64,000 nt of DNA from an uncultured Actinomycetota bacterium (lineage in GTDB: Bacteria > Actinomycetota > UBA4738 > HRBIN12). Position numbers and translations under genes: made by a program. Below, piece by piece: positions 33,489 to 55,560 of the stretch (its first letter is position 1; each line of letters opens with the position of its first letter). The notes below the pieces were generated by a model. It was not told the origin of the DNA and did no database searches. It was given only the letters and a program-made list of their open reading frames with translations. The stretch is taken from the NCBI GenBank assembly GCA_963733635.1, contig CAVTEH010000005.1, forward strand, positions 760 to 64,759, written 5' to 3'.

Positions 33489-34139
33489 ATGGCCACGCCC
33501 GTCACCGGCCCGGACGCGAACGGTCGTAGCCGCGACCTGGAGAGGGCGACCGTGGCGTCGGTCATCACGATCGCATGGGATTGCGTCCTGGGTGTGCTGG
33601 CGATCGCGACCTCGATCGTCACGGGGAGCGTGGCGCTGGCGGCCTTCGGGCTCGATGCGGCGATCGACGGGGCGGCCTCCGTGCTACTCGTCCGACGGTT
33701 CCGGGCCGAGCGCCGCCATGCCCACCTGGGGGACCGCCACGAGCGCCAGGCGCTCGTCATGGTCGGGATCGGTCTCCTCGCGTTCGGTTGCTTGATCGCG
33801 GCCGGCGCGATCCATGCCCTGGTCACGCACCGCTCGTCGCAGGTGTCCGGGTTCGCGCTGGGCCAGGCCGTGGCGTCGGTGCTCTTCCTGCCCGTGCTCG
33901 CGATCTGGAAGCGCCGGCTGGCGAACCGGCTCGGGAGCCGTGCCCTTCGCGGCGACTCGATCCTGACGGCGGCCGGCGCGGTGCTGGCCTTCCTCGCCTT
34001 CATGGGATTGGTTCTCGAGCGGACGCTCGGCTGGTGGTGGGCCGATCCGGTCGCCGCTTTGTTGATCACCGGGTTCCTGGTCTGGGAGGGGCGGCGGGCG
34101 GTGTCGGAGTGGTACTCGACCCGCGCCGAGTTCGGCTGA
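33489..34139 (+). CDS. Cation diffusion facilitator-like transporter (TM domain only)
   Basis: SVALAAFGLDAAID, LGSRALRGDS, WWWADPVAALLI. Confidence 0.8.
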   Translation: MATPVTGPDANGRSRDLERATVASVITIAWDCVLGVLAIATSIVTGSVALAAFGLDAAIDGAASVLLVRRFRAERRHAHLGDRHERQALVMVGIGLLAFGCLIAAGAIHALVTHRSSQVSGFALGQAVASVLFLPVLAIWKRRLANRLGSRALRGDSILTAAGAVLAFLAFMGLVLERTLGWWWADPVAALLITGFLVWEGRRAVSEWYSTRAEFG

Positions 34140-34246
34140 GACCGCGCCGTATCTGTGCAGGTCAGCCCCTCGGCCGTTCCCTATACTGCACGGGTTCCCG
34201 GCCCGGCTGGGGACGGAGAGACCCCAACCTGACCGTAGGAGGTTCC

Positions 34247-36518
<2,272 letters not shown>

Positions 36519-36548
36519 AGGCCGGCGACGAGGCAGGAAGGATCCGGC

Positions 36549-36910
36549 ATGGGCGCGGTACGTCGCTGGCTCGACCGTCTGACCGAGAGCGACGAAGCGC
36601 GCCTCGCGACCGAGATCCACGACTGGGCGTGCGCGATCCCCGGCACGGTCCCGATCGCAGGAGGCCCCGACCCGCGAGAACGTCAAGATCGCCGGCGTGA
36701 TCCGGCGCATCACGGTGCTGCCGGTGGGCGGTCACGAGTCGCTCGAGGCGCATCATCACCGACGGCACCGGCGAGGCCGTCGTGGTGTTCATGGGTCGCC
36801 GAGGGATGAGCGGCTTCTCGCTGGGAACCAAGGTCGTCGTTGAAGGAGTGCTCGGCGAGCAGCGCGGCGAGCTCCGCATGATCAACCCCCGGCTCGAGTT
36901 CAGCGCCTGA
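36549..36910 (+). CDS. OB-fold nucleic-acid-binding domain protein (Rv2694c-like; frameshifts)
   Basis: Joined: VKIAGVIRRITV...LEAIITDGTGEAVVVFMGRRGMSGFSLG...MINPRLEF. Confidence 0.75.
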
Positions 36911-36935
36911 TGCCTGGGCCTCTGCGCCAACAACG

Positions 36936-36975
36936 CGTCAAGGTTGGCGTCGCTCGGCGTTAGGAAGCAGTCAAG
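36936..36975 (+). promoter_or_regulatory. Candidate KdpE-type tandem direct repeats
   Basis: CGTCAAG (36936), CGTTAGG (36958), AGTCAAG (36969); 22- and 11-bp phasing upstream of the kdp operon. Confidence 0.5.
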
Positions 36976-37034
36976 ACCCCTGGCGCGCAACGATGCCGGG
37001 GCTACGGTGTGCGGCATGGAGGAAGGGGCCCGCC

Positions 37035-37118
37035 GTGGCTGATGTGGTGTTCGTGGTGCTGGTGCTCGTGGGCTTCGGCCTGCTGATCGCGTTGGCTCGA
37101 GGGGTTGATCGGCTGTGA
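37035..37118 (+). CDS. 27-aa hydrophobic peptide preceding kdpF
   Basis: MADVVFVVLVLVGFGLLIALARGVDRL; GGAGG RBS; its stop overlaps the kdpF start (GTGA). Confidence 0.7.
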   Translation: MADVVFVVLVLVGFGLLIALARGVDRL

Positions 37119-37202
37119 TCGACACCGTCATCCCGCTCGTCATCGCCGTCGCGCTCGTCGCTCTACCTGGTGTTCGCGCTGGTGTTCCCGGAGCGGTTCT
37201 GA
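37115..37202 (+). CDS. kdpF: K+-transporting ATPase subunit F (one indel)
   Basis: MIDTVIPLVIAVALV-YLVFALVFPERF; diagnostic YLxxALxxPERF end. Confidence 0.85.
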
Positions 37203-37203
37203 G

Positions 37204-38875
37204 GTGGCCGGCTGGGTGCAGCTCTTGGTGCTGGTGGCGATCCTGGTGGTCGCCTATCGTCCGCTGGGCGACTACATGGCGTGGGTGCTCGACTCGAAGC
37301 GGACCTTGCGCGGTGAGCGCTTGATCTACCGCGTCGCCGGCGTGAATCCTGATGTCGAGCAGCGATGGACTGCCTACGCGATCTCGGTGCTGGCGTTCTC
37401 CCTGCTCTCGGTCTTGCTGCTTTACGGCCTGCAGCGCGTCCAGGGGTCGCTGCCGCTCTCGTTGGGTTTCCCCGGCGTCAAAGCCGACCAGGCGTTCAAC
37501 ACGGCGGTCTCGTTCGTGTCGAACACCAACTGGCAGTCCTACGCCGGCGAGTCGACCATGGGCCACCTGGTCCAGATGGCCGGGCTTGGCCGTGCAGAAC
37601 TTCGTCTCGGCCGCCGTCGGCATCGCGGTCGCCATGGCACTGATCCGCGGGTTCACACGCCGCGAGTCCGACACGATCGGCAACTTCTGGTCGGACCTGG
37701 TGCGCAGCACCGTGCGCATCCTGCTCCCGATCGCCGTCGTCGGCGCCGTGGTGTTGATCTCCCAAGGCGTCGTCCAGAACTTCAGCGAGGCCCAGACGGT
37801 GACCACGGTCCAGGGTGCCGACCAGTCGATCCCGGGCGGGCCGGTCGCCTCCCAAGAGGTCATCAAGGAGCTCGGCACCAACGGTGGTGGGTTCTACAAC
37901 GCCAACTCGGCGCATCCGTTCGAGAACCCCAACCCGTTCACCAACCTGCTGGAGATGGCCTTGCTCCTGGTGATCCCGTTCGCGCTGACCGGCACGTTCG
38001 GGAAGCTCGTCGGCAACCGCAAGCAGGGCTACGTCCTGGCCGCGGTCATGGGCGTTGCTCTGGTTGGGCTCGGTGTTGCTGGTCGTGGCAGTTCGAGTCC
38101 CAGCCCAACCCGCAGGTCGAAGCGGTCGGCCGGGGCTGCGGTCACGGGCGGCAACATGGAGGGCAAGGAGGTGCGGTTCGGCATCCCGGCCAGCGGCGCC
38201 TTCGCCGCCTCGACGACCGGCACCTCGACCGGCGCGGTCAACTCCTCGCACGATTCGATGACGCCGTTCGGCGGCGGCACCGTGATGGTCAACATGATGC
38301 TGTCCGAGGTCTCACCCGGCGGAGTCGGCTCGGGGCTCTACGGCATCCTGGTGCTGGCCATCGTGTCGGTGTTCATCGCCGGGCTGATGGTCGGGCGCAC
38401 GCCTGAGTACCTCGGCAAGAAGATCGAACCGCGCGAGATGAAGCTGGTCTCCATGTACATCCTGCTCGTGCCGGCGCTCGTGCTGTGCCTCACCGGCGCG
38501 GCGCTCGTCATGGAGTCGGCGGTCGGCATCGATCTTCAACCCGGGGACCGCACGGACTGTCCGAGGTGCTGTACGCGTTCACGTCGGGCGCCAACAACAA
38601 CGGCAGCGCGTTCGGCGGCCTGTCGGCCAATACCCCCTTCTACAACACGGCGATCGGGTTGGCGATGCTGTTCGGCCGGTTCGCCTCGATCGTGCTGGTG
38701 CTGGGCATCGCGGGGTCCATGGCTCGCAAGAAGCACGTGCCCGAATCGTCGGGCACCTTCCCCACGACCTCGCCGTTGTTCGTGGGCCTGCTGACGGGCG
38801 TGATCCTGATCGTCACCGGCGCTCACGTACTTCCCGGCGCTGTCGCTGGGTCCGATCGTGGAAGGACTGTCCTAG
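37204..38875 (+). CDS. kdpA: K+-transporting ATPase subunit A (frameshifts)
   Basis: [55 protein letters not shown]. Confidence 0.95.
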
Positions 38876-40874
38876 ATGTTCGACGTCGATCTGATGTGGC
38901 GTTCGCTGCCGGACGCGTTCCGCAAGCTCGATCCGCGCCTCATGTGGCGCAACCCCGTGATGTTCGTGGTGGAGATCGGCTCGGTCCTGACCACCCTGTT
39001 GTTCGTCCGCGATCCGTCGTTGTTCGCGGGCCTCATCGCGGTGTGGCTCTGGCTGACGGTGCTCTTCGCCAACCTCGCCGAGGCGGTGGCGGAAGGGCGG
39101 GGCAAGGCGCAGGCAGCCGCGTTGCGCGCCACCCGCACCGCAGACCATGGCCCGGCGTCTCCGGCCCGACGGCACCGAGGAGTCGGTGCCCGGCACCGAT
39201 CTGCGACCCGGCGACCGAGTGGTCGTGGAAGCCGAACCAGGTGATCCCCGGCGACGGCGAGGTCGTCGAGGGCGTCGCCTCGGTCGACGAGTCTGCGATC
39301 ACCGGGGAATCGGCTCCCGTCATCAGGGAATCGGGCGGCGACCGCAGCGCGGTCACCGGGCGGCACCAAGGTGCTGTCCGACCGCATCGTCGTCGAGATC
39401 ACCTCGAAGCCGGGCGAGACCTTCATCGACCGCATGATCGCGTTGGTCGAGGGCGCCCAACGCCAGAAGACGCCGAACGAGGTCGCACTGAACATCTTGC
39501 TCGCGAGCCTCACGATCGTGTTCCTGCTGGCGACCGTCACCCTGCAGCCGCTGGCCATCTACTCCGGGGCCGCGCCAGGCCGTGATCGTGCTGGTCGCGC
39601 TGCTGGTCTGCCTCATCCCCACCACGATCGGCGCGCTGCTGTCGGCGATCGGCATCGCGGGCATGGACCGGCTGGTGCAGCGCAACGTGCTGGCGATGTC
39701 GGGCCGGGCCGTCGAAGCGGCCGGCGACGTCAACACGCTGCTGCTGGACAAGACCGGCACGATCACCTTGGGCAACCGGGAAGCCGCAGAGTTTCTGCCT
39801 GTCCCCGGGGTCACCGTGGAGCAGCTCGCCGACGCCGCGCAGATCACGAGCCTGGCCGACGAGACCCCCGAAGGCCGTTCGATCGTCGTGCTGGCGAAGG
39901 AGCGCTACGGGCTCCGCGCCCGCGACCTTCGGGGCGCCGAGTTCATCCCGTTCACCGCCCAGACCAGGATGAGCGGCGTCGACGTGGACGGTCGCCGGCT
40001 GCGCAAGGGGGCGGCCGACTCCGTGCGGGCGTGGGTCGAGGAGCAGGGCGGGGACGGTGTCCGAAGAGGTCGACACGATCGTGGCCGGGCATCGCGGTGC
40101 AGGGCGGCACTCCGCTCACGGTGGCCGAGAACGGCAGCGTCGCTGGGCGTGATCTACCTCAAGGACATCGTGAAGGAAGGCATGCGCCAGCGGTTCGACG
40201 AGCTTCGACGCATGGGCATCCGCACGCGTGATGATCACCGGCGACAACCCCCGCACCGCCGAGGCGATCGCCGAGGAGGCCGGCGTGGACGACTTCCTGG
40301 CCGAGGCGACGCCCGAGGACAAGATGGCGCTGATCCGCAGCGAGCAGGAAGGCGGCAAGCTCGTGGCCATGACAGGCGACGGCACGAACGACGCCCCCGC
40401 GCTCGCGCAAGCCGACGTCGGCGTCGCGATGAACACCGGCACGTCGCGCCGCCAAGGAAGCCGGCAACATGGTCGACCTGGACTCCAACCCCACGAAGCT
40501 CATCGAGATCGTGGGCATCGGCAAGCAGCTGCTGATCACGCGTGGGTCGCTGACGACGTTCTCCATCGCGAACGACGTGGCGAAGTACTTCGCGATCATC
40601 CCGGCGATGTTCGCGGCGGTCTATCCGGGGCTCGACCGGCTCAACGTGATGCAGCTGGGCAGTCCCAGCTCGGCGATCCTGTCCGCCGTCGATCTTCAAC
40701 GCCCTGATCATCGTGGCGCTGATCCCACTGGCCTTGCGCGGGGTGCGGTACACGCCCAGCTCGGCGGCGTCGATGTTGCGGCGCAACCTCGGCATCTACG
40801 GCCTGGGCGGCGTGATCGCGCCGTTCATCGGCATCAAGGTGATCGACCTGGTGGTCAGTCTGGTGGTGACGTGA
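38876..40874 (+). CDS. kdpB: K+-transporting ATPase subunit B (frameshifts)
   Basis: [52 protein letters not shown]. Confidence 0.95.
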
Positions 40875-40875
40875 C

Positions 40876-41443
40876 ATGCGACGTTCGTTGATCGCGGCCC
40901 TGCGGATGCTCCTGGTCCTGACGGTGCTGCTCGGCATCGCCTATCCCGTGGCGATCACCGGGATCGGCCAGGGCCTGTTCGGCGCCCGCGCCGACGGCAG
41001 CCTCGGTCGAGGTCGGATGGAACCGTCGTCGGGTCCGAGCTGATCGGCCAGGCATTCGAAGGGCCGGAGTGGTTCACCGGCCGGCCCGACGCCTACGACC
41101 CGCCGCGAGCGCCCCCTCCAACCTCGGTCCGACCAACCCCGAGCTGGGCGCCGCGGTGCAGGAGCGCGCTCGCCGCCGATCACGGAGGCCGACGCACCCG
41201 AGGGTTCGCATCCCGGTCGACGCCGTCACCGGCGGCGGCAGCGGGATGGACCCGCACATCAGCCCCGCCTACGCCATGCTGCAGGCGCCCCGCGTCGCCG
41301 ACGCGCGCGGGCTCGAGCTGGGCCAGGTCACCGCACTGATCGATGACCACACCGAGGGCCGGACCCTCGGGTTCATGGGTGAGGCGCGCGTGAACGTCCT
41401 GCTGCTCAACCTCGCCATCGAGGGGCTAGCCTCGCAGCCATGA
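40876..41443 (+). CDS. kdpC: K+-transporting ATPase subunit C (frameshifts)
   Basis: [60 protein letters not shown]. Confidence 0.9.
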
Positions 41444-43930
41444 AACGCGGCGAGCTCCGCATCTACGTCGGGTACGCGGCCGGGGTCGGCAAGACCTTCG
41501 CGATGCTCGGCGAGGGGCATCGCCGGCGAGACCGGGGCACCGATGTCGTCGTGGGGTTCGTCGAGACCCACGGGCGGCCGCTGACGGCCGAGGCGCTGGG
41601 CGACCTCGAGGTGGTGCCCAGGCGCTCGATCGAGTACCGGGGATCGGCGTTCGAGGAGATGGATGTCGACGCCATCGTGGCCCGGGCCCCCGAGGTCGCG
41701 TTGGTGGACGAGCTCGCCCACACGAACGTGCCGGGCTCACGCAACGAGAAGCGCTGGCAGGACGTGCACGAGATCCTGGATGCCGGCATCGACGTCATCT
41801 CCACGGTCAACATCCAGCACCTCGAGTCGCTGAACGACGTGGTCGAGCGCATCACGGGCGTCCTTCAGCGCGAGACGATCCCGGACGAGATCGTGCGGGC
41901 GGCCGATCAGCAAGAGCTGATCGACATGACGCCGTACGCGCTCCGCCGCCGCATGGCGCACGGCAACATCTACCCGCCCGAGAAGATCGACGCCGCGCTG
42001 GGCAACTACTTCCGCGAGGGCAACCTGGGTGCGCTGCGCGAGCTGGCCCTGCTGTGGATGGCGGACCGGGTCGACGAGTCCCTGCAGGACTACATGAAGG
42101 AACGCGGGATCGAGGGTCCGTGGGAGACGCGCGAGCGCATCTTGGTCGGGATCTCGGGACGTCCCGACGACGAGATGCTGATCCGTCGCGCCGCGCGCAT
42201 GGCGGCGCGTCGAGGCGGTGACCTCATCGCGGTCAACGTGATCCCCGAGGACGGCCTGGCGGAGCCGGGCACGATCGAGGCGACCCGCGAGCTCGTGCGG
42301 TCGCTGGGTGGGACCTTCCGCGATGTGATCGGCCGAGGCGTGCCGGAAGCGCTGCTCGACGTCGCCCGCGCCGAGAACGTGACCCAGATCGTGATCGGCG
42401 CCAGCTCGCATTCGCGATGGCGGGAGTTCTTCCGAGGTTCGGTCGTGCATCGCATCATCCGCGATTCCGGGGCGATCGACGTGCACGTGATCAGCCAGGA
42501 CACGCCGTCATCGGGCGAGAGCCTGGGCGCGCCGCCCACGCCGGGACTCAGCCTGAACCGGCGGGTCGCCGCGACGCTGGCCGGGAGCTGCCGGGCTCGT
42601 GCTGCTCACGATCGCCTTGACCGCCCTGAGGGAACAGCTGGGGCTTCACGAGCGTCATGCTGCTCTATCTCACGCTGGTCGTGGGCGTGGCCGCGGTCGG
42701 TGGGCTGTGGCCGGCGGTGGCCTCGGCCCTGGCTTCGGGGCTGCTGATCAACTGGTACTTCACGCCTCCGATCCACACGTGGACGATCGCCGAGGCCGAG
42801 AACGTCCTGGCGATCGTGGTGTTCGTCTTCGTGGCCTCCGTGGTCAGCGTGCTGGTCGATCGCGCCGCTCGCGCGCGAGCCGAAGCGCAGCGGGGCCGGG
42901 CCGAAGCCGAGGCGCTGGCGCGGCTCTCCGGCTGGCTCGCCGCCGAGGAGGACCCGCTTCCGACGCTGTTGGTGCAGCTGCGTGACACGTTCGGCTTGCA
43001 GGCCGTCTCGGTGCTCCGTCCCCACGAGCAGGGCTGGGTGCTGGAGGCGTCCGCCGGCTCGAACCCTCCGGCCGAGCCCGCCGAGCGGTTCCGATCTGAT
43101 CGAGCTCAGCGACGGCGCCGTCCTGGTGCTGCGGGGCGATCGCCTGCCGGCAGAGTCGCGCCGGGTGCTGACTGCGCTTCGCCGCCCACATGGCGGTGGC
43201 GGTCCGCGCCAGCGATCTCAGCGAGGAAGCGGCCGAAGTGGCCGAGCTCGTCGAGGTCGACGAGCTGCGCACGGCGATCCTGCAAGCGGTCTCCCACGAT
43301 CTGCGGACCCCACTCGCCTCGATCAAGGCGGCCGCCAGCAGCCTCCGCCAGGACGACGTCCCGTGGAGCGCCGACGAGACCGGCGAGTTCCTCGCCACGA
43401 TCGAGGAGGAGACCGACCGGCTGAGCGTGATGGTGGGCAACCTCTTCGACATGAGCCGGATCCAGAGCGGCGCCCTGCATCTGGTCTGCGGCCGAGTCGG
43501 ACTGGACGAGGTCGTGCCGCGCGCGCTCGCGAGCCTGCCCGACAACGGGCGGTCGATCGAGACCGACGTGCCCGAGAGCCTGCCTCGGGTCGACGTCGAC
43601 GCGGCGCTGCTCGAGCGCGCGATCGCGAACGTCGCCGGCAACGCGGTGGCGTGGACGCCGCCGGGCAAGCCGGTCCGCATGATCGGCTCCGGCGTGTCCG
43701 GCAGGGTCGAGCTCCGCGTGGTCGACCGAGGGCCGGGCATCGCTCCATCCGACCGCGACCGCGTGTTCGAGCCGTTCCAGCGGCTCGGCGATCGCTCGAC
43801 TGCCGATGGGGTCGGACTCGGACTGGCCGTGGCCAAGGGCTTCGTCGAGGCGATGGGAGGCGAGCTCGCGATCGAGGACACGCCGGGCGGCGGCCTCACG
43901 ATGGTGATGTCGTTCGCGGAGGCGCCATGA
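41440..43930 (+). CDS. kdpD: Full-length osmosensitive K+ sensor kinase KdpD (frameshifts)
   Basis: GYAAGVGKTFAML, VDELAHTN, Usp-like domain, DUF4118 TMs, VSHDLRTPLASIK, HATPase G boxes. Confidence 0.95.
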
Positions 43931-44615
43931 CCCGGGTGCTGGTGGTCGACGACGAGCCGCAGATCCTGCGGGGGCTGCGCACCAACCTGCGTGCCCGTGG
44001 GTACGAGGTCGAAACGGCGGCCGACGGCGAGACCGCGCTCGACCTGGCGGCCGGCCGCCTCCCCGACATCATGATCTTGGACCTCGGCCTGCCGGGCATC
44101 GACGGCATCGAGGTGATCCGTGGGATCCGGGCGTGGAGCGCGATGCCGATCATCGTGCTCTCGGCCCGCGAGCAGGAACCCGAGAAGGTCGAAGGCCCTC
44201 GACGTGGGCGCGGACGACTACGTCACGAAGCCGTTCGGCATGGACGAGCTGCTCGCGCGGCTGCGCGCCGCGGAACGGCGGAGCGCGCCCACCTCCGACC
44301 AGCCGTCGATCGACGACGGATTCGTTCGTGGTCGATCTGGCGGCCAGCGCGTGCGGCGCCCCGGCGCCGACGACGTGCACCTCACGCCGACCGAGTGGCA
44401 CCTGGTGGAGATCCTCGTCCGCAATCCGGGCAAGCTGGTCAGCCAGCGCCAGCTGCTCGCACGAGGTGTGGGGTCCCCGCTACGAGGACGAGACCAACTA
44501 CCTCCGCGTGTACATGGCCCAGATCCGGCGCAAGCTCGAGCCCGACCCCACCCATCCCCGCTACTTCATCACCGAGCCCGGCATGGGCTACCGCTTCGAA
44601 GGAGAACACCCATGA
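43927..44615 (+). CDS. kdpE: OmpR-family response regulator KdpE (frameshifts)
   Basis: VLVVDDEPQI, LDLGLPGIDG, VHLTPTEW, NYLRVYMAQIRRKLE, TEPGMGYRF. Confidence 0.9.
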
Positions 44616-45356
44616 ATAGCAGGCAACGCACCATCGCCGGCTATGCGCTGGCGGTTGTCGGGACGGCGGCGCTCGTTGCCATCTTCATCCAGATCCGCGA
44701 CGACATCGATCCGGTAAGCAAGGGGTTCGGGTTCCTGGTCCTGGTGGTGGCCGTGGTGGCGGTTGGCGGGTTGGGACCAGGCATCGCGGCAGTCCGTGCT
44801 GGGGTTCGCCGTCTTCAACTACTTCTTCCTGCCGCCGTACGACACGTTCCAGGTCAGCAAGTCTGACGATGTCGTCGTGCTGTTCGTGTTCCTGGGCGTC
44901 GCGGCGCTGATCTCGCGTCCTGATCGCCCGCGCCGACGCGCGAGCGCGATCGGCGGAGGAGCGGGCCGCGGAGCTCCGCTTGCAACAGGACCTGAGCCGC
45001 GCGCTGGTGGAGCCGCAAGGCGATGCGGATCGCTACGGCGGCGTGCTGCAGGCTGGTCGTGACGACGTTCCGGTTCGAGGACGGGGCGCTTGTTCGAACA
45101 ACCCGGAGCCGACCTGGCCGGGCTGGTGGAGATGTCGGTCGTCAACGCGTCACCGGGCTCGATCCCATTGACCGCGGGGGAGGGGGTCGAACGGTTCCCG
45201 TTGAACGTGGGACGGCGGAACCTGGGGCTGTTGGTGCTCCGTGGATTCCGACCGGAGCTCGATGCGTCGGAGCGGCGCATCCTGGAAGCCTTCGGCAATC
45301 AGCTGGCGCTGTTGCTGGAACGTGATCGGGTGCTCCGCGCAGCGATCACGAAGTAG
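44612..45356 (+). CDS. KdpD-like DUF4118 membrane plus GAF-like protein with no kinase domain (frameshifts)
   Basis: LVLVVAVVAVGGLGPG, FNYFFLPPYDTF, LGLLVLRG...ERRILEAFGNQLALLLERDR; stops before any H-box; ATGA overlap with kdpE. Confidence 0.8.
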
Positions 45357-45367
45357 TCTGGACTGGA

Positions 45368-46088
45368 CTAGCCGCCCACGGTGGAGGCGCCGTCGATCCC
45401 GTCGCCCGGCAGGCCACCGGAGGTTTCGCCCACCACCGCATCGCGCAAGGCCCTCTCCGAGGGAGCGCTGGCCAGTGCCAAGACTTCGTCGCCGGCCGAC
45501 AGGACGGTCTCGGGCTGTGGGATGACGACGTGGCCTTCACGCAGGATGCCCACCACCGCGGCATCGGCGGGGAGCCGCAACTCGTAGATGGCCTTGCCGA
45601 CCGAAGGAGAACCGTCGGGCAAGGTCATCTCGACGATCGACACGCGTCCACCTTCCAGGCGGATCAGACGCACCAGGTCGCCGACCGTGACGGCCTCCTC
45701 GACCATGGCCGTCAGGATGTGCGGCGGCGACACAGCGGCGTCCACGCCCCACTGCTCGGTGAACAGCCACTCGTTCTTCGGGTGATTCACGCGCGCCAGC
45801 ACCCTGAGGCACGGCGAATTCCTGCTTGGCCAGCAACGAGGTGACCAGGTTGTCCTCGTCGTCACCGGTGGCCGCGACCACCACCTCGGCGTTCGCCATG
45901 TCGGCCCCTTCCAGGACCGATGGCTCGCACGCGTCCCCGAAGACGACGGTGACGCCGGGCGCCCAGCTCCGAAGCTTGTCCGACAGGTCCCGTTCCTGTT
46001 CCACGAGCGACACGTCATGTCCGCGCTCGGCCAGGTCGACGGCCAGATGCCGTCCCACCGCTCCGCCGCCCGTCACGATGACCTTCAT
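45368..46088 (-). CDS. trkA: TrkA/KtrA-type RCK K+ regulatory protein (CeoC-like; one frameshift)
   Basis: GGGAVG, GDACEPSVLE, ATGDDEDNLV, ARVNHPKNEWLF; TrkA-C domain. Confidence 0.9.
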
Positions 46089-46751
46089 CTAGGCTGCTCT
46101 CCGGCGGGCGCGGCGATCATGTCGTCCAGGGTGTCGGTGCCGTCCTTCGTGAGCATGACGACCAGGAAGTCGCCGGCCTGCAGCGAGCTCTCGTCGGTCG
46201 GGAGGAATCCGCCTCCGCCCCGGGAGACGCCGGCGATCAGGATCTTGCCCTCCACGTTGAGCCCGGACGGCTTGGTGCCGACCAGATGCGCCGGTACCGG
46301 CGACGCGCATGCGCAACAGGTCGCCGCCCCCCAACGACTCCCGGATCTCCGCCCGGTCGTGGAAAAGCATGAGCTGGATCTGCTTGATGCCCCACGTGGT
46401 GGTCGCCACGGTCGGGATGTTGAGTCGCTCGTAGATCTCGGCGCGTCGTGGGTCGTAGATGCGCGCGATGACCTTGGGCACGTGGTACATCTCGCGCGCC
46501 ACCCGTGCCGACACGATGTTGGAGTTGTCACCGCTCGAGACCGCCACGAAGGCGTCGGCGTCCTTGATTCCGGCTTCCTCCAGCACGTCGCGATCGAACC
46601 CCAAGCCCACCACGGTCTTGGTCCCCTCGCCCGGCTGATACCGATAGAACGCCTCGGGATCCTTGTCGATCATCGTCACGTCGTGCTCACCGACCAATTG
46701 GCTCGACAGCTCCGAGCCGACCCGGCCGCAGCCCATGATGATGACCTTCAT
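46085..46751 (-). CDS. trkA: TrkA/KtrA-type RCK K+ regulatory protein (CeoB-like; one frameshift)
   Basis: MKVIIMGCGRVG, GFDRDVLEEAGI, SSGDNSNI, ARIYDPRRAEIYERL. Confidence 0.9.
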
Positions 46752-46803
46752 GACGGCGTAGCCTACCCATCCTCGTTTGACCTGGCACCGTACCGAGCGC
46801 AAC

Positions 46804-46821
46804 CTTCACGCCTTCTTAGCG
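46804..46821 (-). promoter_or_regulatory. Candidate KdpE-type tandem repeats upstream of the trkA pair
   Basis: Minus strand CGCTAAG-N4-CGTGAAG (11-bp phasing). Confidence 0.4.
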
Positions 46822-46861
46822 CCACTCGGACGCCGAAGACCCGCCCCGCTCGGCGGGGAGG

Positions 46862-47211
46862 CTCCGGGACCGTCCTGCGGCCTGCGCTTCCCTCTCTGGC
46901 TCGCTTCGCTCGCTTCGTTCAGTCCAGATGCAGTCCTCCGGACGGCACCCGGATCCTTCGCCGGTTCAGCCCCTCACGCCCCGGCCACCAGCGAACCACC
47001 ACGCACACGGCCGGTGGTGGGAACGACGCGGGGTCGCGCCAGAGGCAGCATCTGGACTGAGCCATGCGAGCGAAGCGAGCGAACGAGGGAAGCGCTGCCG
47101 CCGGCGCGTGCCCCGCGGCGACCAACGTCGAGCGAGATGGTCTCGACGACCCTGGGAAGGACGGAGCCCGGAGGTCCACCGGGCTGGAGGGCAACCGGTG
47201 GGCCTCCGGGC
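46862..47211. repeat. Nested inverted-repeat element (MITE-like or structured RNA candidate)
   Basis: 48-bp imperfect IRs 46884-46931 / 47048-47095; outer IR about 46862-46876 / 47158-47173; 17-bp hairpin 47166-47211. Confidence 0.6.
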
Positions 47212-47274
47212 TAGATCTCGGAGATCGGGGTGACTCCGGACATGCTCAGCATCGTCGCGTCCGTGTGAGCGCGG

Positions 47275-47313
47275 CGTGAAGGATCGCGGGCTCGTCGTGA
47301 AGATCGCGTGAAA
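47275..47313 (+). promoter_or_regulatory. Candidate KdpE-type tandem direct repeats upstream of the second kdpD-like operon
   Basis: CGTGAAG (47275), CGTGAAG (47296), CGTGAAA (47307); 21- and 11-bp phasing. Confidence 0.5.
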
Positions 47314-47353
47314 GACGGGTCTTGCCGCACGGCCGTGGCACGATTGGCCCGAC

Positions 47354-48805
47354 ATGGGGCAGGGATCGTCCGACATCGAGAGCCGTCCGTGGCGCGGTCT
47401 CACGCTCCGCGGGGTGTTCTTCGCCGTCGTCTCGCCTGCGGCGGCAGCGGTGGCCTCGATCCCGTTCGGGCGATCCGGGACCCGCGTCGGCCATCTCGCT
47501 GTTCCTGCTGGCGATCGTGATCGCGGCGGTGGCGGGTGGCCTGTACGCGCGGGCTCATCGCCGCCCTGCTCTCGTCCTTCGCGCTGCCGTTCCTCTTCGG
47601 ATCGCAGCGGTTCCGCCTGCGGCTGGACGGCACCGAGGAGATCGTGACCGCCATCGTCTTCTTGTCCGTAGCGGTGGTGGTGGGATCTGCTCGTGGGCGG
47701 CGCCGCCGACGAGCGTGCCAGGGCGGCCCGGCACGAACGTGAGTCCCGATTGCTCGGAACCCTGTCGTCCACGCTGCTGTCGGGCGAGGTGCCCGACCGC
47801 GTCCTCGATGACTTCGCTTCAGTGCTCTTGGAGCCCTTCGGCCTGTCGAAGTGTGAGATCACGGTCGAGCTGGACGGCACGCAGCTGGTCGCACGCTCAT
47901 CGCGCCCGGAGCTCGAGTCCGGAGGGCCCGACGCGGTCGTTCCGTTGGTGGCGGGGACGGTCGCGTTCGGCACGCTGCGGGTCGAGCGGCCCCGAGGCCG
48001 TCGCGCCCTCAACGCCGACGAGCTGCTGCTGCTGGAGGCCGCCGCCAGGCAGGCCGCGGCGGCGCTGGACCGTGCTCGCTTGGACGCCCGCGCCCGCATG
48101 GCTCAGCTCGACGCCGAGACCAACCAGCTGCGTGCCGCCATGTTCAGCTCGGTGACCCACGACCTGCGCACGCCGTTGGCATCGATCAAGGCGGGCGTCA
48201 CCAGCCTGCTCGACCCCAGCGTCGAGTACGACACCGTCCAGGAGACCGAGCTGCTCACCACGATCTTGGAGGAGACCGACCGGCTGAATCGATTGGTGGG
48301 CAACATCTTGGACCTGGCGCGGATCCGCGCCGGTGCCCTGAGCCCGGTCCGCAGCGACTCGTCGTTGGAGGAGACCTTGGAAGCGGTCGTGGCCCGCATG
48401 CGGCCGCGCATCGACCTCGTGACCGTGGACCTGACCATCAGCGACGACATGCCCGACGTGCCGGTCGACGGCGTGCAGATGGACCAAGTGCTCACGAACC
48501 TGCTGGAGAACGCGGCGCGCTATGCACCCGCCGGCTCCACGGTGCGGGTCTCGGCGCAGGTGGTCGGTGACCGGGCGCAGGTTCGCGTGGTCGATCAGGG
48601 CCCCGGGGTTCCGGAAGACGACCGCGAGCGGGTGTTCGAGGCGTTCTATCGCGGCGAGCGGAGTCCGGAGATGCCGGGCAGCGGGCTCGGGCTCGCGATC
48701 GCCAACGCTATCGTGACCGCCCATGGCGGCCGCATCTGGATCGACGATGCGAGTCCGGGAGGCACGGCGGTAGTGTTCGAGATCCCGATCGAGGGGCCCC
48801 GATGA
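47354..48805 (+). CDS. KdpD-like sensor kinase lacking the N-terminal KdpD and Usp domains (frameshifts)
   Basis: DUF4118-like TMs, GAF-like segment, SVTHDLRTPLASIK, QVLTNLLENA, GSGLGLAIA. Confidence 0.9.
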
Positions 48806-49488
48806 GTTTGGTGCTGGTGGTCGATGACGAACCACAGATCCGCCGCGCCTTGCGCACCAGTCTGGAGGCACACGGCTACCAGGTCTCCACGGTCGGTACG
48901 GGCGAGGAGGGTGTGGTGGGTGCGGCGGACCAGGATCCGGATCTCCTGCTCCTCGACCTCGGCCTTCCCGACATCGATGGCACCGAGGTGATCCGGCGCG
49001 TCCGAGGGTTCTCCGATGTGCCGGTCATCGTGCTCTCGGTGCGCGAGAGCCAGAGTGACAAGGTGGCGGCCCTCGATGCCGGCGCCGACGATTACGTCAC
49101 GAAGCCGTTCGGTATGGAGGAGCTGCTCGCACGAGCACGAGCGGCGATGCGTCGCAAGCAACCGGAAGAACCCGCCATGCCGGTGCAGACCTTCGACGAT
49201 CTCGAGGTGGATCTCGCTCGCAGGCTGGTGAGCCGGGGCGGCGAGCAGGTGCACCTGACGCCCACCGAATACGGCCTGTTGGAGGCGCTGGTGACGAACC
49301 CTGGCAAGTTGCTCACCCACCAGTGGCTCTTGCGGAAGGTCTGGGGCCAGGGCTACGGCACCGAAACCACCTACCTCCGGACCTACGTCCGCGCGTTACG
49401 CAAGAAGCTGGGCGACGACGCACAGGCGCCCGGCCTCATCGTCACCGAGCCCGGCGTCGGATATCGCTGGGTCGCCGAGGCGGACTGA
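48802..49488 (+). CDS. Second KdpE-like OmpR-family response regulator
   Basis: VLVVDDEPQI, GADDYVTKPFGMEELLAR, VHLTPTEY, GKLLTHQWLL, TEPGVGYRW; intact 228 aa. Confidence 0.92.
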   Translation: MSLVLVVDDEPQIRRALRTSLEAHGYQVSTVGTGEEGVVGAADQDPDLLLLDLGLPDIDGTEVIRRVRGFSDVPVIVLSVRESQSDKVAALDAGADDYVTKPFGMEELLARARAAMRRKQPEEPAMPVQTFDDLEVDLARRLVSRGGEQVHLTPTEYGLLEALVTNPGKLLTHQWLLRKVWGQGYGTETTYLRTYVRALRKKLGDDAQAPGLIVTEPGVGYRWVAEAD

Positions 49489-49492
49489 TCCG

Positions 49493-51842
49493 ATGGTCGA
49501 ACGCGACTCCCAAAGTGGCGGCTTCATCGACGGTGTGAAGCGCCTCGTCGTCGGCAGAGCGTTGGCGAGCCACAAGGCCGACCACCAGCTGTTGCCGAAG
49601 TTCTTGGCGCTCCCGGTCTTCTCGTCCGACCCGTTGTCCTCGGTTGCCTACGCCACCGAGGAGATGATGCTGGTCCTGGTGCTGGCGGGGGCCGGCGCGT
49701 TGGCGTTCAAGATTCCGCTCGGCATCGCCGTGGCACTGCTGCTCACGATCGTGGTCACCTCGTATCGCCAGACCGTCCGGGCCTATCCGCGGGGCGGGGG
49801 CTCATACATCGTGGCTCGCGAGAACCTGGGCACGATCCCCGGGCTGGTCGCCGGCGCGGCGATCCTGACCGACTACGTCCTGACGGTGGCGGTCAGCATC
49901 ACGGCCGGCACGGTGGCGATCGCATCGGCGGCGCCGTCGGTCGAAGATCTCCGGGTGCCGATCGCGATCGGCTTGGTCATGCTCGTGATGCTGGCCAACC
50001 TCCGAGGCGTGAAGGAAGCCGGCACGTTGTTCGCCATCCCGACCTACGGGTTCGTCGCGATCGTCGCCTTGACCCTGGTGGTCGGCTTCGCTCGATGCCT
50101 CGGCGGCTGTCCGGTGGCGGCGACGGCCGACCTGGAGGTGCACGCAGAGACCGGGATCACGGTGTTCCTCTTGCTGCGTGCCTTCTCGTCGGGAGCGACC
50201 GCGCTGACGGGCGTCGAGGCGATCGCCGACGGGGTGCCGGCGTTCCGGCGGCCGCAGTCGCGCAACGCTGCGGCGACGTTGGCCATCATGGGCGCCATGG
50301 CCGTGACCCTGTTCCTCGGGCATCACCGTGATGGCCCAGCTGCTCCAGGTGCGTGTCGATGAGGAGATCGCAGCGTCGAACTCCGTGCTGTCCCAGATCG
50401 GCAGGACGATCTACGGGGACGGCATCTGGTTCATCCTGCTGCAGGTGTTCACGGCCGGCATCCTGATCCTGGCCGCCAACACCGCGTTCCAGGACTTCCC
50501 GCAGGCTCTCGTCGATCCTGGCGCGGGACGGGTTCCTGCCTTCGCAGTTCAAGAACCGCGGGGACCGACTCGTGTTCTCGAACGGGGTCGTTGATCCTGG
50601 CCGGACTCGCCGCGCTGTTGATCTGGATCTACGACGCGAACCTCACGCGGTTGATCCAGCTCTACGTCGTCGGAGTGTTCACCGCCTTCACGTTGTCGCA
50701 GTCGGGCATGGTGCTTCGCTGGTTCCGGCTGAAAGGGCCTGGGTGGCAGCGGAGCGCGCTGGTCAACGGCATCGGCGCATTCACGACCGGCGTCGTGCTG
50801 GTCATCGTCACGATCACGAAGTTCTCTCGGGGCGCGAAGGTCGTCGTCGTGGCCATCCCGATCATGGTGCTGATCTTCCTGGCGATCCACCGCCACTACC
50901 GTCGCGTGCGAGAGGTGCTCGGCAACGCAGGGTCTCGGCCCGGACCAAGGCCACGGGTTCGGCGCTGTTCCTGGTCGACGATCTCGGCCAGGCCACGCTC
51001 GACGCCATCGCCTACCTCCGAGCGGTGCGTCCTGAGCGCGTCCATGCCCTGTACGTCGGCCCCGCCGACCGGTTCGACGAGGTGGCGGCCGGCTGGGAAG
51101 CTGGCGGCTCCGCGGATCGGCACGCTCGAGCGTCTCATCGGCGCGGACCGCCACCTGGTGAGGGCCGTGCGCGCGCGGATCCGCTCGATCGAACGTCGGC
51201 CGGAGGACTTCGTGACGGTGATGATCCCCGAGGCCCTCACCCGGCGCACGCTGTGGCAGTTCCTGGTGCACCGCGAAGCGTTCCTGTTGAAGACCGCGCT
51301 CCTGTTCGAACCGGGCGTGGTCGTGACCGACATCCCCCTGGTGCCGGGTGACGATCGGCCTCGCCGACCGACGGGCGGCCGGTCGAACCCGAACGGAGCG
51401 TGGTGTTGATCCCCGTGTCGGGGGTGCATGACGCCACCGTCCGCGCGGTCGTATACGCGCGCTCCCTCCGACCCGTCTAGGTGGAGGCGATCTTCCTGAC
51501 GACGGATCTGGACGAGGTGCGCGGGTGTGATCGAAGACTGGTACGAGCGGGACCTGGACGTCCCGCTCGATCCTGGTGGAAGCCCCGTTCCGTGACATGG
51601 GTGCTCCGCTGCTGGACGAGATCCGGACCTACACCGCGCGTGGGGACACGATCGTGACGGTGGTCCTGCCCGAGCTGGTGCCCGGCACTGGTGGGGCAAC
51701 GCGCTGCACAACCAGACCGGCCTGTTCTTCAAGCGGCTCCTCCTGTTCGAGCCCGACGTCGTGGTCACCAGTGTGCCCTTCCACCTGCGCCTCGCCGGAA
51801 ACACCTGCGCCGCCATCCGCGACGGGGCCGATGGCGCCGTAG
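49493..51842 (+). CDS. KimA-like (KUP/APC) K+ permease 1 with two tandem cytosolic domains (frameshifts; in-frame TAG at 51478)
   Basis: FSSDPLSSVAYATEE, SYRQTVRAYPRGGGSY, ALTGVEAIADGVPAF, ANTAFQDFP; C-terminal WWGNALHNQT. Confidence 0.85.
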
Positions 51843-51855
51843 GCTGTCGCTCCGG

Positions 51856-54237
51856 ATGGCCAACACGACACCGCTCGCGGAACGTTCGACCGGCATCACC
51901 AAACGTCTCCTGCTGGGCAGGGCGTTCGCGAGCAGCAAGATCGAGCACACGCTGCTGCCGAAGATCCTGGCCTTGCCGGTCTTCGCCTCCGACGCGTTGT
52001 CCTCGGTCGCCTACGCCACCGGCGAGATCTTGATCGTGCTGTTCCTGGCGTCCTCTGCGCCGCAGAACTACGTGCATCCCGATCGCGGTCGCGATCTCGC
52101 TGCTCATGGCGGTCGTCGTGGTGAGCTACCGGCAGACGGTCCGTGCCTACCCGAGCGGTGGCGGCGCCTACATCGTGTCCAAGGACAATCTGGGTGCTTT
52201 CGCGGGACTGGTGGCTGCGGGCGCCTTGCTCTTCGACTACATGATGACCGTGGTGGTCTCGATCGTGGCAGGGGTGTTCGCGATCGGGTCGGCCATCCCG
52301 TGGGCGAACGAGCACAAGGTGGTGCTGGCGATCGGATTCGTGATCTTCGTGACGCTGGCCAACCTGCGGGGGGCTCGCGAATCCGGAACCCTGTTCGCGA
52401 TCCCCACGTACGGATTCGTCCTCTCGATCGCGGTGTTGGTCGGACTCGGCTTCGTGCAGTGCCTGGGCGGTTGCCCGCAGGTGCCGGTCGACGTCGAACC
52501 CCTCCACGATGCCGCGACCGCGGCCGGGGCCGTCGGCGTGTTCACGCTGCTGAAGGCGTTCTCATCGGGAGCCACTGCCCTGACCGGGGTCGAGGCGATC
52601 TCCAACGGCGTCCCCGCGTTCCGCCGGCCGCAGGCCCGCAACGCCGCCGAGACCCTCGCGATCATGGGCGCGATCGCGATCGCGATGTTCATGGGCATCT
52701 CGTGGCTGTCCACGCACGTCGAGGGCGTGATCGCTAGCGAGGAACGTTCGATCGTGGCGCAGATCGCGCTGGCGGTGTTCGGCGAAGGCAGCATCGGGTT
52801 CTTCTTCGTGCAGTTCTTCACGGCGGCGATCCTGATCCTGGCTGCCAACACCGCCTATCAGGACTTCCCACGGCTCGCCTCGATCCTGGCCCGAGACCGG
52901 TACATGCCCAGGCAGTTCGTCAACCGCGGCGACCGGCTGGTCTTCTCCAACGGCGTGATCGTGCTGGGTCTCCTGTCGTGCGTGATGATCTACATCTTCG
53001 ATGCCGACCTGAACTCGCTGATCCACCTGTACGTGGTGGGTGTGTTCACCTCGTTCACGCTGTCGCAATCGGGCATGATCAAGCACTGGATCTCCGAGGG
53101 TCGCAAGGGCGCCGCGGCGATGCCCGGGTGGCGTCGCTCGATCGTGATCAACATCGTCGGCGCGGTGGTGACCGGCGTCGTCCTGGTGGTCGTCATCGCC
53201 TCGAAGTTCCGCGACGGCGCCTGGTTGTCGATCCTGATCATGGGGCTGCTGGTGCCGGTCTTCTATTCGATCCATCGCCACTACACGAACGTCCGTGTGC
53301 AGGTCGGGGCGTCGGACCGTGCGCCCCGGGGCAGCCTCGGCCGAGCACGTCGTCCTGTTGGTGCGACAGCTCGACGCTGCGACTGCCGAGGCGCTCGGCT
53401 ACCTGCGTTCGTTCCGTCCCGACGACGTGCGGCCGGTCACTCCGGCGCGCAGCGGGGTGATCGATCCACGGATGCAGTCGCAGTGGCGCACCTTCGCCGG
53501 GAACGGCGTGCCGGACCTGATCCCGCTGACCGGACACGGCTTGTTCTCCAGCGTGCGGGAAGTACATCCAGACGATCCCGCGTGAGCCGGACGACTTCGT
53601 GACCGTGATCGTGCCGGAGTCGCTGCAGCCGCAGGGCCTGTTCCGTTACCTCCTGCGCAGCCGCGATCTGATCCGCCTGAAGGGGAGCCTGCTGCGCATC
53701 CCCAACGTCGTGGTGACCGACGCACCGGTGGTGGAGGCTCAGGGCGCACCGATCGGGGTGGACGCGCGCCCGTTGATCCCCCGGCGCACCGTGAGCCTGG
53801 TCCTGGTCAGCTCCGTGAACGACGTCTCGATCCGCGCCGTCAACTACGCCCGAGCGCTGGAAGCGAGCGAGACCCGTGCGATCTACTTCGACATGGATCC
53901 CGAGGAAGCGCACACGCTCGAGGTCGACTGGTTCGACGCGGGCATGGAGGTGCCGCTCGACATCGTGGAGGCGCCGTTCCGCGATCTGACCGCGCCGATG
54001 CTGGAGGAGGTCCGCCGCTACACCGAACGGGAAGACACCGTGGTCAACGTGATCCTGCCCGAGTACATCGTGTCGAAATGGTGGCAGCTGCCCCTGCACA
54101 ACCAGACCGCGCTGTTCGTGAAACGCTTGTTCCTGTTCGAAGAGCGCACCCTGCTGACCAGCGTCCCCTACGTCTTGGATGCCGCGGCCGTGGAGATGCC
54201 CGAACCGGCCGCCGCGTCGAGGAAGGAGCACCCATGA
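51856..54237 (+). CDS. KimA-like (KUP/APC) K+ permease 2 with two tandem cytosolic domains (frameshifts)
   Basis: FASDALSSVAYATGE, SYRQTVRAYPSGGGAY, ALTGVEAISNGVPAF, ANTAYQDFPRL; C-terminal WWQLPLHNQTA. Confidence 0.88.
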
Positions 54238-54713
54238 ACATCCGCCCTGCCACCAAGGACGACGACGAGTTCCTGAAGACCATGCTGTACGAAGCGGCCC
54301 GGTGGAACCCGGACTGGCCCCGCGAGCCCATGGAAGAGGTCCTGGACGAGCCCACCCTGCGCCGCTACCACGAGGATTGGGGTCGTGATGGTGACGGCGG
54401 GGTCATCGCCGAGATCGAGGGCATGCCGGTGGGCGCCGTCTGGTACCGGCTCTTCACCGAGGACGAGCCCGGGTTCGGGTTCGTGGACGAGAAGACGCCC
54501 GAGGTCTCGGTGGCGGTGGCGCCGTTGCATCGGCGGAAGGGCATCGGCGGCACGTTGCTGCGCGCGGCCATGGTGCAGGCCCGCGAGGAGGGCTACCGGT
54601 CGCTCTCGCTCTCGGTGGCCGTGCACAACCGCTCACGAATGATGTACCAGCGCGTGGGATTCGAGCAGGTCGGCGAGCGGGGCGAGAACTGGACGATGCT
54701 GGTCAACCTCTAG
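54234..54713 (+). CDS. GNAT family N-acetyltransferase
   Basis: VAVAPLHRRKGIGGTLL acetyl-CoA motif; ATGA overlap with permease 2. Confidence 0.9.
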   Translation: MNIRPATKDDDEFLKTMLYEAARWNPDWPREPMEEVLDEPTLRRYHEDWGRDGDGGVIAEIEGMPVGAVWYRLFTEDEPGFGFVDEKTPEVSVAVAPLHRRKGIGGTLLRAAMVQAREEGYRSLSLSVAVHNRSRMMYQRVGFEQVGERGENWTMLVNL

Positions 54714-55382: not shown

Positions 55383-55560
55383 GGGGTTCGAATTCCGGTC
55401 CGGGCTCGGGAATATCGAAACGGTACCAGTGCGTTCAGTGGCCTCCGAGAGGGGGTATCGACCCGTGGGCCTGGTCGAACCGCAGGCGAGCGGGTGGTAC
55501 CGTCCCCGCGAACGGGCCCGGCTCGACAGATGCTCCGCGACCCGTGAAGGTGCCCCGGCC

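Follow-up and report, generated by a model that had tools for sequence, protein, structure and literature searches.

A KdpDE-like two-component system, KimA-type K+ symporters and a TrkA pair form a conserved potassium locus in uncultured Actinomycetota

We analysed a 64-kb stretch of DNA from an uncultured Actinomycetota bacterium (assembly GCA_963733635.1, contig CAVTEH010000005.1; here called the window, G+C ~68%), in which positions 36549-54237 hold a composite potassium locus. Its core is a module of a KdpD-like sensor kinase (HK2), an OmpR-family regulator (RR2), two KimA-type K+/H+ symporters and a divergently oriented pair of trkA genes, and this module is found across the order to which the genome belongs. 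Beside it stands a complete kdpFABC-kdpDE operon that is restricted to the window's genus. We consider it fairly likely that the two represent parallel circuits, the HK2-RR2-kimA-trkA module being ancestral and the kdp system next to it specific to the genus. The composite locus is real and conserved in uncultured soil actinobacteria and is apparently undescribed.

Gene content of the locus

Gene order was set by tblastn of intact orthologues from the congeneric genome G017 (locus L015; G and L numbers are our handles for genomes and loci) onto the window. Domains were checked directly using Pfam on the longest in-frame window fragments, and the intact G017 orthologues were also run through Pfam. 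On the + strand, an OB-fold gene is followed by the gene for a 27-aa peptide, kdpF, kdpA, kdpB, kdpC, kdpD, kdpE and the gene for a kinase-less DUF4118-GAF protein. Next come trkA2 and trkA1 on the - strand and then, again on the + strand, HK2, RR2, kimA1, kimA2 and a GNAT acetyltransferase gene. The core module comprises the following features, with frameshift counts referring to the window copy (see below):

45368..46088, - strand: trkA2, RCK protein with TrkA_N and TrkA_C domains; 1 frameshift; Pfam, tblastn
46089..46751, - strand: trkA1, RCK protein with TrkA_N and TrkA_C domains; 1 frameshift; Pfam, tblastn
47354..48805, + strand: HK2 kinase, DUF4118-GAF-HisKA-HATPase, no KdpD-N or Usp; 3 frameshifts (three indels relative to genome G008)
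48802..49488, + strand: RR2, OmpR-family regulator; intact; recognition helix ETTYLRTYVRALRKKLGDDAQAP
49493..51842, + strand: kimA1, K+/H+ symporter of the KimA type, cytosolic domain duplicated in tandem; at least 3 frameshifts
51856..54237, + strand: kimA2, second KimA homologue; 3 frameshifts
54234..54713, + strand: GNAT acetyltransferase, Pfam Acetyltransf_1 E=3e-16; start overlaps the kimA2 stop (ATGA)

A sequence-only reading of this DNA had listed kdpFABC-kdpDE, a kinase-less KdpD-like protein, a trkA pair, a truncated kdpD/kdpE pair and two KimA-like permeases, and all of these were found within 36549-54237 using Pfam on window fragments and tblastn of intact G017 orthologues. The translational coupling it described was likewise confirmed, with a GTGA overlap at the peptide/kdpF junction and ATGA overlaps at kdpC/kdpD, kdpD/kdpE, kdpE/DUF4118-GAF and HK2/RR2. 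RR2 and kimA1 are separated by 4 nt, and the trkA1/trkA2 junction reads TAG-ATG. The ATGA overlap between kimA2 and the GNAT gene makes the latter probably the final gene of the HK2-RR2-kimA operon. The trkA genes, however, had been called mutually divergent, while in fact both run co-directionally on the - strand and it is the HK2 operon from which they diverge. The claimed co-location of K+ modules is real. The arrangement was seen again in G004, G008, G014, G015, G017, L026 and others, and this recurrence in independent assemblies shows that it is no mis-join.

HK2 and RR2, a KdpDE-like pair conserved across the order

HK2 contains a DUF4118 domain (E=3e-19), a HisKA domain with THDLRTPLASIK, an HATPase_c domain (E=1e-32) and a weak GAF match, so that the membrane, H-box and ATP-binding parts of a sensor kinase are all present. 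Neither KdpD-N (PF02702) nor a Usp input domain was found in HK2 by Pfam. Its best NCBIfam match is KdpD, with 229 bits where the cut-off is 1123, and it is only 36% identical to the adjacent KdpD (tblastn). On domain content and phylogeny (see below), HK2 is a KdpD paralogue rather than a KdpD. RR2 has a receiver (REC) domain and an OmpR-type winged helix and is 54% identical to the neighbouring KdpE (tblastn). The best NCBIfam match of RR2 is KdpE with 247 bits (cut-off 325), and as the true KdpE of the locus itself reaches just 252 bits, the equivalog cut-offs give no separation of the two.

Conservation within the order was assessed in 31 genomes from 11 genera and 8 families (16 of high quality), 19 of them from the window's genus and 12 from other families. 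An HK2 orthologue was present in 31/31 genomes and in every case had one to three KimA-like genes at a distance of 0.5-3 kb. In addition, 185,579 species genomes were scanned with an HK2 alignment and reference proteins were then mapped onto 80 resulting loci. Matches came almost exclusively from uncultured Actinomycetota metagenome-assembled genomes (MAGs). HK2 is likewise close to KimA-like genes in ~57 further actinobacterial MAG loci. In essentially every mapped actinobacterial locus, HK2 and an RR2-type regulator adjoin KimA-like genes, and in most of them a trkA pair adjoins HK2-RR2-kimA.

In a maximum-likelihood tree of 86 kinase cores, all 54 HK2-type kinases formed one clade with 100/100 support; the KdpD N-terminus is missing from all of them, and 51 have KimA as a neighbour. 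The sister clade unites all full-length KdpDs with an actinobacterial kinase type lacking the N-terminus (HK3) and with N-less Chloroflexota kinases. Chloroflexota loci combining a histidine kinase with KimA were considered as HK2 orthologues and rejected because their kinases fall in the KdpD clade, and their kinase-KimA association thus arose independently by convergence. The separate clade of HK2, together with its low identity to KdpD, identifies it as an old paralogue and not as a recent gain at this locus. The earlier proposal that the permease operon had gained its own KdpD-type system therefore holds in one part only: the operon is indeed headed by HK2-RR2, but the module is ancestral and order-wide instead of newly acquired.

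Further variants of these genes were seen in related loci. A separate KdpD-N/Usp-only gene lies beside kdpFABC in L041, L043, L059, L100 and L102, which also encode a distinct N-less kinase. L031, L034, L039, L049 and L051 hold an HK3 N-less kinase with its own regulator type (recognition helix DDVEVLRVFVSQLRRKIEPDP), adjoining kdp or kimA genes. Between trkA1 and HK2, some congeners have a Crp-family (cyclic nucleotide monophosphate-binding) regulator gene (L015:10307-10999 of G017; L026) that is missing from the window, and a fluoride riboswitch (RF01734, 44.7 bits) is located at L030:5493-5554, a few kb from the HK2 module of a related MAG.

KimA permeases

The two permeases, previously described as KimA-like, are true KimA homologues. 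The G017 orthologue of kimA1 matched Bacillus subtilis KimA (PDB 6S3K) with E=8e-120, and both the membrane domain with its 12 transmembrane (TM) helices and the C-terminal domain were aligned. The ~150 residues between these two domains in kimA1 are a sequence repeat of the C-terminal domain. In B. subtilis KimA, the K+ site consists of D36, Y43, T121, S125, T230 and Y377, with D117 in the tunnel and E233 in proton coupling (PMC6994465). All eight residues are conserved in both kimA1 and kimA2. NCBIfam has no model matching either protein. In the near-identical genome G008, kimA2 is absent and a GNAT gene lies directly 3' of kimA1 (L013), indicating that the second KimA copy is strain-variable. 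Nucleotide divergence between the window and G008 increases toward the 3' end of kimA1.

The TrkA pair and K+ systems absent from the lineage

TrkA proteins are understood as gating rings of TrkH/KtrB pores. We searched the 31 order genomes for absent K+ systems, with positive controls that fired each time. The TrkH/KtrB pore (PF02386) was found in 0/31 genomes (control fired in 11/14 known genomes), Kup (PF02705) in 0/31 above the cut-off, the weak matches being the KimA genes themselves, and the diadenylate cyclase (DAC; PF02457) in 0/31. TrkA_N (PF02254) proteins are encoded by 29/31 genomes, usually exactly as the pair, which abuts a KimA-like gene or HK2 in ~27 genomes; in other families the order is a co-directional kimA-trkA-trkA. 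With RCK domains present and the pore absent in 31/31, these genomes fall outside the definition of a Trk/Ktr system. Since both TrkH/KtrB and Kup are missing, the order has KimA as its universal K+ importer, and its RCK pair is left without the canonical partner.

The TrkA pair probably works with KimA, gating or regulating it. Besides the missing pore, this is suggested by the pair being the sole TrkA_N proteins in most genomes, by its position next to a KimA-like gene in ~27/29 of them, by its co-directional arrangement across a short gap in several families and by the additional cytosolic domain of the KimA homologues. Further, in M. tuberculosis Rv2690c adjoins ceoB and mutants of the two share a transposon sequencing phenotype (PMC12216072). 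The pair might instead be independent of KimA. It could be a soluble regulator, or its target could be a different membrane protein, for instance a channel or CPA2 antiporter, and its position beside KimA would then reflect mere co-regulation of K+ genes. B. subtilis KimA is active alone (PMC6994465), needing no RCK partner, an HK2 subclade (L069-L072, L076, L079-L081) has no trkA within 10 kb, and TrkA-like RCK proteins partner antiporters elsewhere, e.g. KhtT/KhtU and CpeA/CpeB (PMC10117811). The first two of these points tell against a KimA partnership. We regard independence from KimA as rather unlikely and continue with KimA as the probable partner of the pair.

The absence of DAC bears on the control of KimA by cyclic di-AMP (c-di-AMP). 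In a sample of 301 Actinomycetota genomes, DAC was absent from 33/39 HK2-clade-positive genomes versus 54/262 HK2-negative ones. This association covers few independent lineages, and one family (f18) carries both HK2 and DAC. Replacement of c-di-AMP by the two-component system as a strict rule was rejected on account of f18, and the data are no more than suggestive of HK2-RR2 taking the place of c-di-AMP control.

The HK2 promoter and its signal

Three elements were located in the spacer between trkA1 and HK2:

46884..47095, unstranded: MITE-like (miniature inverted-repeat transposable element) palindromic repeat of 212 bp; repeat search, blastn against own genome
47143..47232, + strand: structured element, conserved; hairpin of 18 bp, CUGGAGGG in its loop, flanks AGGACGG and CUCGGAG
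47275..47313, + strand: HK2-operon operator with G-type boxes, CGTGAAG-N14-CGTGAAG-N4-CGTGAAA; predicted RR2 site

In 20 species, HK2 is preceded by the conserved arrangement CGTGAAG-N14-CGTGAAG-N4-CGTGAA(G/A/C), whose spacing to the start codon is similar throughout; a fourth box is usually found 11 bp further 5'. The weight matrix derived from these HK2-promoter sites scores 50.3 bits here and at most 12.9 bits elsewhere in the 3-Mb genome, and this genome scan yielded no further RR2 targets. As the window contains 41 copies of the 7-mer CGTSAAG, single boxes carry no information and only the phased arrangement of three does.

The hairpin is single copy in the genome and lies just upstream of the HK2 operator. 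In an alignment of 11 species, compensatory changes were found in 10/18 pairs, and G.U pairs fit the + strand only. It stays with HK2 where a crp-like gene intervenes between trkA and HK2, and distant loci have a longer version. At gathering threshold, Rfam returned no family in the 64-kb window, yybP-ykoY included, where indel errors could have lowered the score, and nothing relevant in related loci. The ydaO riboswitch (RF00379) gave no match at this threshold, and the spacer between trkA and HK2, leader included, had no Rfam match even at E<=10. Based on these results, the hairpin is neither a ydaO riboswitch nor a member of another known family. The 212-bp element has 48-nt inverted repeats at its ends and five genomic copies with 84-91% identity (contigs C5, C8 twice, C2 and C4). 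It is absent from the trkA-HK2 spacer of relatives and looks like an inserted MITE.

The sole predicted target of HK2/RR2 is an operon of K+ importers, and the pair is the only regulator linked to the lineage's only general K+ importer. HK2 also retains the DUF4118 and GAF parts that it has in common with KdpD. All of this points to K+ shortage as the signal. Alternatively, HK2/RR2 may respond to osmolarity, ionic strength, pH or NH4+/Na+, with the KimA operon serving osmoadaptation. This would fit the loss of the KdpD N-terminal and Usp input domains from HK2, and osmostress generally elicits K+ uptake (PMC10117811); in Mycobacterium smegmatis, kdp expression is also described as responsive to Na+ and NH4+ (PMC5401905). 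In view of the single predicted target, we find a signal other than K+ scarcity unlikely and favour K+ shortage as the input of HK2.

The genus-specific kdp operon

At lower coordinates than the trkA pair, the following features make up the kdp part of the locus:

36549..36910, + strand: OB-fold gene, ~120 aa, in three frames in the window; intact G004 orthologue at L014:1001-1366
36936..36975, + strand: kdp operator, C-type KdpE-like boxes, phased direct repeats CGTCAAG ... CGTTAGG-N4-AGTCAAG
37035..37118, + strand: 27-aa hydrophobic membrane peptide, stop overlapping the kdpF start (GTGA); conserved in G004 (L014:1525-1608) and G017
37115..37202, + strand: kdpF, one indel; G004 orthologue passes TIGR02115 (28.6 bits, cut-off 26.85)
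37204..38875, + strand: kdpA, 3 frameshifts; tblastn; G017 orthologue PF03814 E=6e-234
38876..40874, + strand: kdpB, P-type ATPase, at least 4 frameshifts; E1-E2_ATPase and Hydrolase domains
40876..41443, + strand: kdpC; G017 orthologue PF02669 E=4e-68
41440..43930, + strand: kdpD, full length, at least 3 frameshifts; KdpD-N, Usp, DUF4118, HisKA and HATPase; intact orthologue of 851 aa
43927..44615, + strand: kdpE, 2 frameshifts; recognition helix ETNYLRVYMAQIRRKLEPDPARPR (canonical)
44612..45356, + strand: kinase-less KdpD-like protein, four DUF4118 TM helices and GAF, ending before the H-box

KdpA, KdpB, KdpC and KdpF are encoded together and all map to the window, which thus holds a complete KdpFABC pump. 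The window fragments of kdpD show PF02702 (E=3e-96) plus Usp, HisKA and HATPase, the intact 851-aa orthologue has all five domains that define KdpD, DUF4118 included, and NCBIfam KdpE is the top match for the G017 orthologue of kdpE. The OB-fold gene has a weak match to Pfam PF01336 (E=0.0011, below cut-off). The 27-aa peptide has no NCBIfam match; a gene for it ahead of kdpF was also seen in L031, L039, L051, L059, L063 and L082, which are Actinomycetota MAGs and one Rokubacteria locus.

A KdpD-N domain and KdpA were found in 12/19 genomes of the window's genus and in 0/12 elsewhere in the order. Wherever contigs permit, kdp lies 6-12 kb from HK2 in genomes of the genus. Congeners without kdp retain HK2-RR2-kimA and often hold a third, divergent kimA paralogue. 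Given this distribution next to a universal module, kdpFABCDE is a variable, genus-restricted addition.

The kinase-less protein matches Pfam DUF4118 with E=2e-22, while its GAF_3 match is weak (E=0.002). In an AlphaFold2 model (predicted local distance difference test score, pLDDT, 77.5), a long helix connects four membrane helices to a small alpha/beta domain, and there is a helix at the terminus. A Foldseek search with this model returned GAF domains, including that of E. coli KdpD (4QPR), in support of a GAF fold. The protein aligns to KdpD residues ~364-600 and stops where the H-box helix would start. Its gene is kept in the kdp-less loci L025 and L027-L029. We speculate that it may serve HK2 or KdpD as a co-sensor or modulator.

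Two operator types and two probable circuits

The kdp promoters of the window, G008, G017 and G004 share their architecture and have C at the fourth position (in G017, CGTCAAG...CGTCAAG-N4-CATCAAG). In loci from Methylomirabilota, Rokubacteria and Chloroflexota, kdp/kdpD promoters contain GTCAAG-N5-RTCAAG. The minimal KdpE site obtained by DNase footprinting in M. smegmatis is CCGTAAAGAAACCATCAAGGCC, a repeat of the same kind as the kdp boxes (PMC5401905). Further, the recognition helices differ between ETNYLRVYMAQIRRKLEPDPARPR in KdpE orthologues and ETTYLRTYVRALRKKLGDDAQAP in RR2 orthologues, each conserved within its own group. From this we infer that G-type boxes are bound by RR2 and C-type boxes by KdpE.

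The sequence-only reading had put forward a single integrated, multi-tier circuit. Here, KdpD, HK2 and the DUF4118-GAF protein would cross-talk by forming heterodimers or by cross-phosphorylation, and every K+ promoter would be a target of both regulators, so that Kdp, KimA and TrkA would come under graded control. Such a circuit would agree with the co-location of the genes in at least 10 genomes of the genus, with the close relationship of the operator cores (CGT[C/G]AAG, equal 11-bp phasing) and of the two regulators, with one G-type box inside the G004 kdp promoter and with the translational coupling of the DUF4118-GAF gene to kdpE in the window. However, kdp is dispensable, as 7/19 genomes of the genus and all other families keep the module without it, and the DUF4118-GAF gene also persists in its absence. 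Only the HK2 promoter has the triple box of G-type, the recognition helices are consistently different, and HK2 and KdpD belong to different old clades. A CGTGAAG box near the trkA1 start, considered as a third shared promoter, was rejected since it is not conserved in relatives. The differences in boxes and helices favour two insulated parallel circuits, and a single integrated circuit appears improbable to us.

We therefore prefer parallel circuits, with KdpE predicted to act on kdp and RR2 on its own operon, the two being probably insulated. Some observations argue for caution with so clean a division. The boxes were assigned to regulators by position and co-variation only, and distant HK2 promoters (L060, L078) carry C-type boxes, which means that the one-base discrimination is not universal. 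The failure of the trkA1 box to be conserved counts here as well, and the conserved + strand hairpin upstream of the boxes indicates that the HK2 promoter may be more complex than modelled.

Frame breaks in the window

At least 24 frame changes were detected in 17.7 kb (some 25 single-base indels), and nearly every gene is spread over 2-5 reading frames (tblastn, translations), a feature that the sequence-only reading had passed over. Gene calling based on G+C content at third codon positions (GC3) yielded fragmented genes and thereby exposed the frameshifts. The source genome comprises 3.05 Mb in 10 contigs and has a completeness score of only 55%; its near relatives are long-read soil MAGs. 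In G008, which is congeneric and 94% complete, kdpA-E, HK2 and RR2 are intact, with HK2 in a single open frame and 99% identical at the amino acid level. Alignments of the window with G008 show 99-100% nucleotide identity, interrupted only where the window has isolated one-base indels. The frame breaks in this copy are thus long-read assembly errors and do not mark pseudogenes. The flanking housekeeping genes hppA (membrane pyrophosphatase) and topA (topoisomerase I), at 33500-36582 and 55400-57000, are also spread over several frames, consistent with consensus errors genome-wide. The density of frameshifts and the low completeness might be taken to indicate decaying pseudogenes or an assembly chimera, but this is hardly credible with flanks broken to the same degree, open frames in the G008 sister and a gene order shared by many independent short- and long-read MAGs. 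Apparent pseudogenes in this indel-ridden consensus should not be trusted.

Proposed model and significance

Our model has two layers. The first, ancestral to the order, would consist of an autoregulated operon HK2-RR2-kimA1-kimA2(-GNAT), the divergent trkA1-trkA2 genes and the DUF4118-GAF membrane protein. HK2 would sense K+ shortage, upon which phosphorylated RR2 would bind the CGTGAAG direct repeats ahead of its own operon and switch on the KimA K+/H+ symporters. HK2-RR2 may in this way fill the role that the c-di-AMP riboswitch has for kimA in Bacillus, and the orphan TrkA (RCK) pair would most likely gate or regulate KimA. The second layer, kdpFABC-kdpDE with a full-length KdpD, would have been added next to the module only in this genus, with KdpE driving kdp through CGTCAAG-type repeats. 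Both circuits would run in parallel and probably insulated, one operator base and a recognition helix apart.

To our knowledge, control of KimA has been described only via c-di-AMP, through a riboswitch and through protein binding. Here, a whole order and related lineages have no cyclase and no pore, yet hold a strictly conserved module of KdpDE paralogues, KimA and TrkA. Literature searches turned up neither a kimA operon with a two-component system at its head nor an RCK-KimA pairing nor such a composite locus, in line with the earlier suggestion that the arrangement is undescribed. More tentatively, the locus may represent a new K+ uptake unit of a large group of uncultured soil Actinomycetota devoid of c-di-AMP synthesis, Trk/Ktr pore and Kup, in which a KimA with doubled cytosolic domain is gated by a dedicated TrkA pair and controlled by ancient KdpD/KdpE paralogues via an operator differing in one base from that of KdpE; the same RCK-KimA partnership would make Rv2690c the long-missing membrane partner of CeoB/CeoC. 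The locus offers a testable candidate membrane partner for orphan TrkA pairs, mycobacterial CeoBC included. Further, paralogous regulators with operators differing at one position are a natural pair for studying two-component insulation, and the KdpD forms that occur naturally, from full length to N-terminus only, TM-GAF only and TM-GAF-kinase, could be used to dissect K+ sensing.

Comparison with known systems

In comparison with truncated or split forms of KdpD (E. coli KdpD deletion mutants and the cyanobacterial non-kinase sensor NF038185), HK2 similarly corresponds to the membrane, GAF and kinase half. Unlike these variants, it is natural, ancient and monophyletic and is tied to kimA instead of kdp, and the DUF4118-GAF protein adds a third, kinase-less fragment type. 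The kdp part of the locus resembles KdpFABC-KdpD/KdpE of E. coli and M. smegmatis in its full kdpF-A-B-C-D-E set with canonical domain content and in its operator of two 11-bp-phased direct repeats ending in CATCAAG/AGTCAAG. It differs from them by the extra 27-aa peptide before kdpF, the DUF4118-GAF gene coupled 3' of kdpE, the adjoining second KdpDE-like system and its patchy occurrence within the genus.

B. subtilis KimA (YdaO; KUP-family, 6S3K) and the permeases described here share both domains and all K+/H+ site residues. In contrast to B. subtilis KimA, the latter are ~790 aa long with a tandem-duplicated cytosolic domain and occur as two to three paralogues per locus. Their leader contains no c-di-AMP (ydaO) riboswitch and the lineage no c-di-AMP cyclase, while a two-component system stands at the head of the genes and the TrkA pair at their flank. 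Going by the literature, a parallel to the permease-TrkA arrangement is found in mycobacteria, where CeoB/CeoC and Rv2690c likewise combine two half-size TrkA genes with a neighbouring KimA-like APC permease, with no TrkH (0/31 in the order studied here). In the locus presented here, however, the permease operon has its own HK2/RR2 system in front, and kdp is adjacent.

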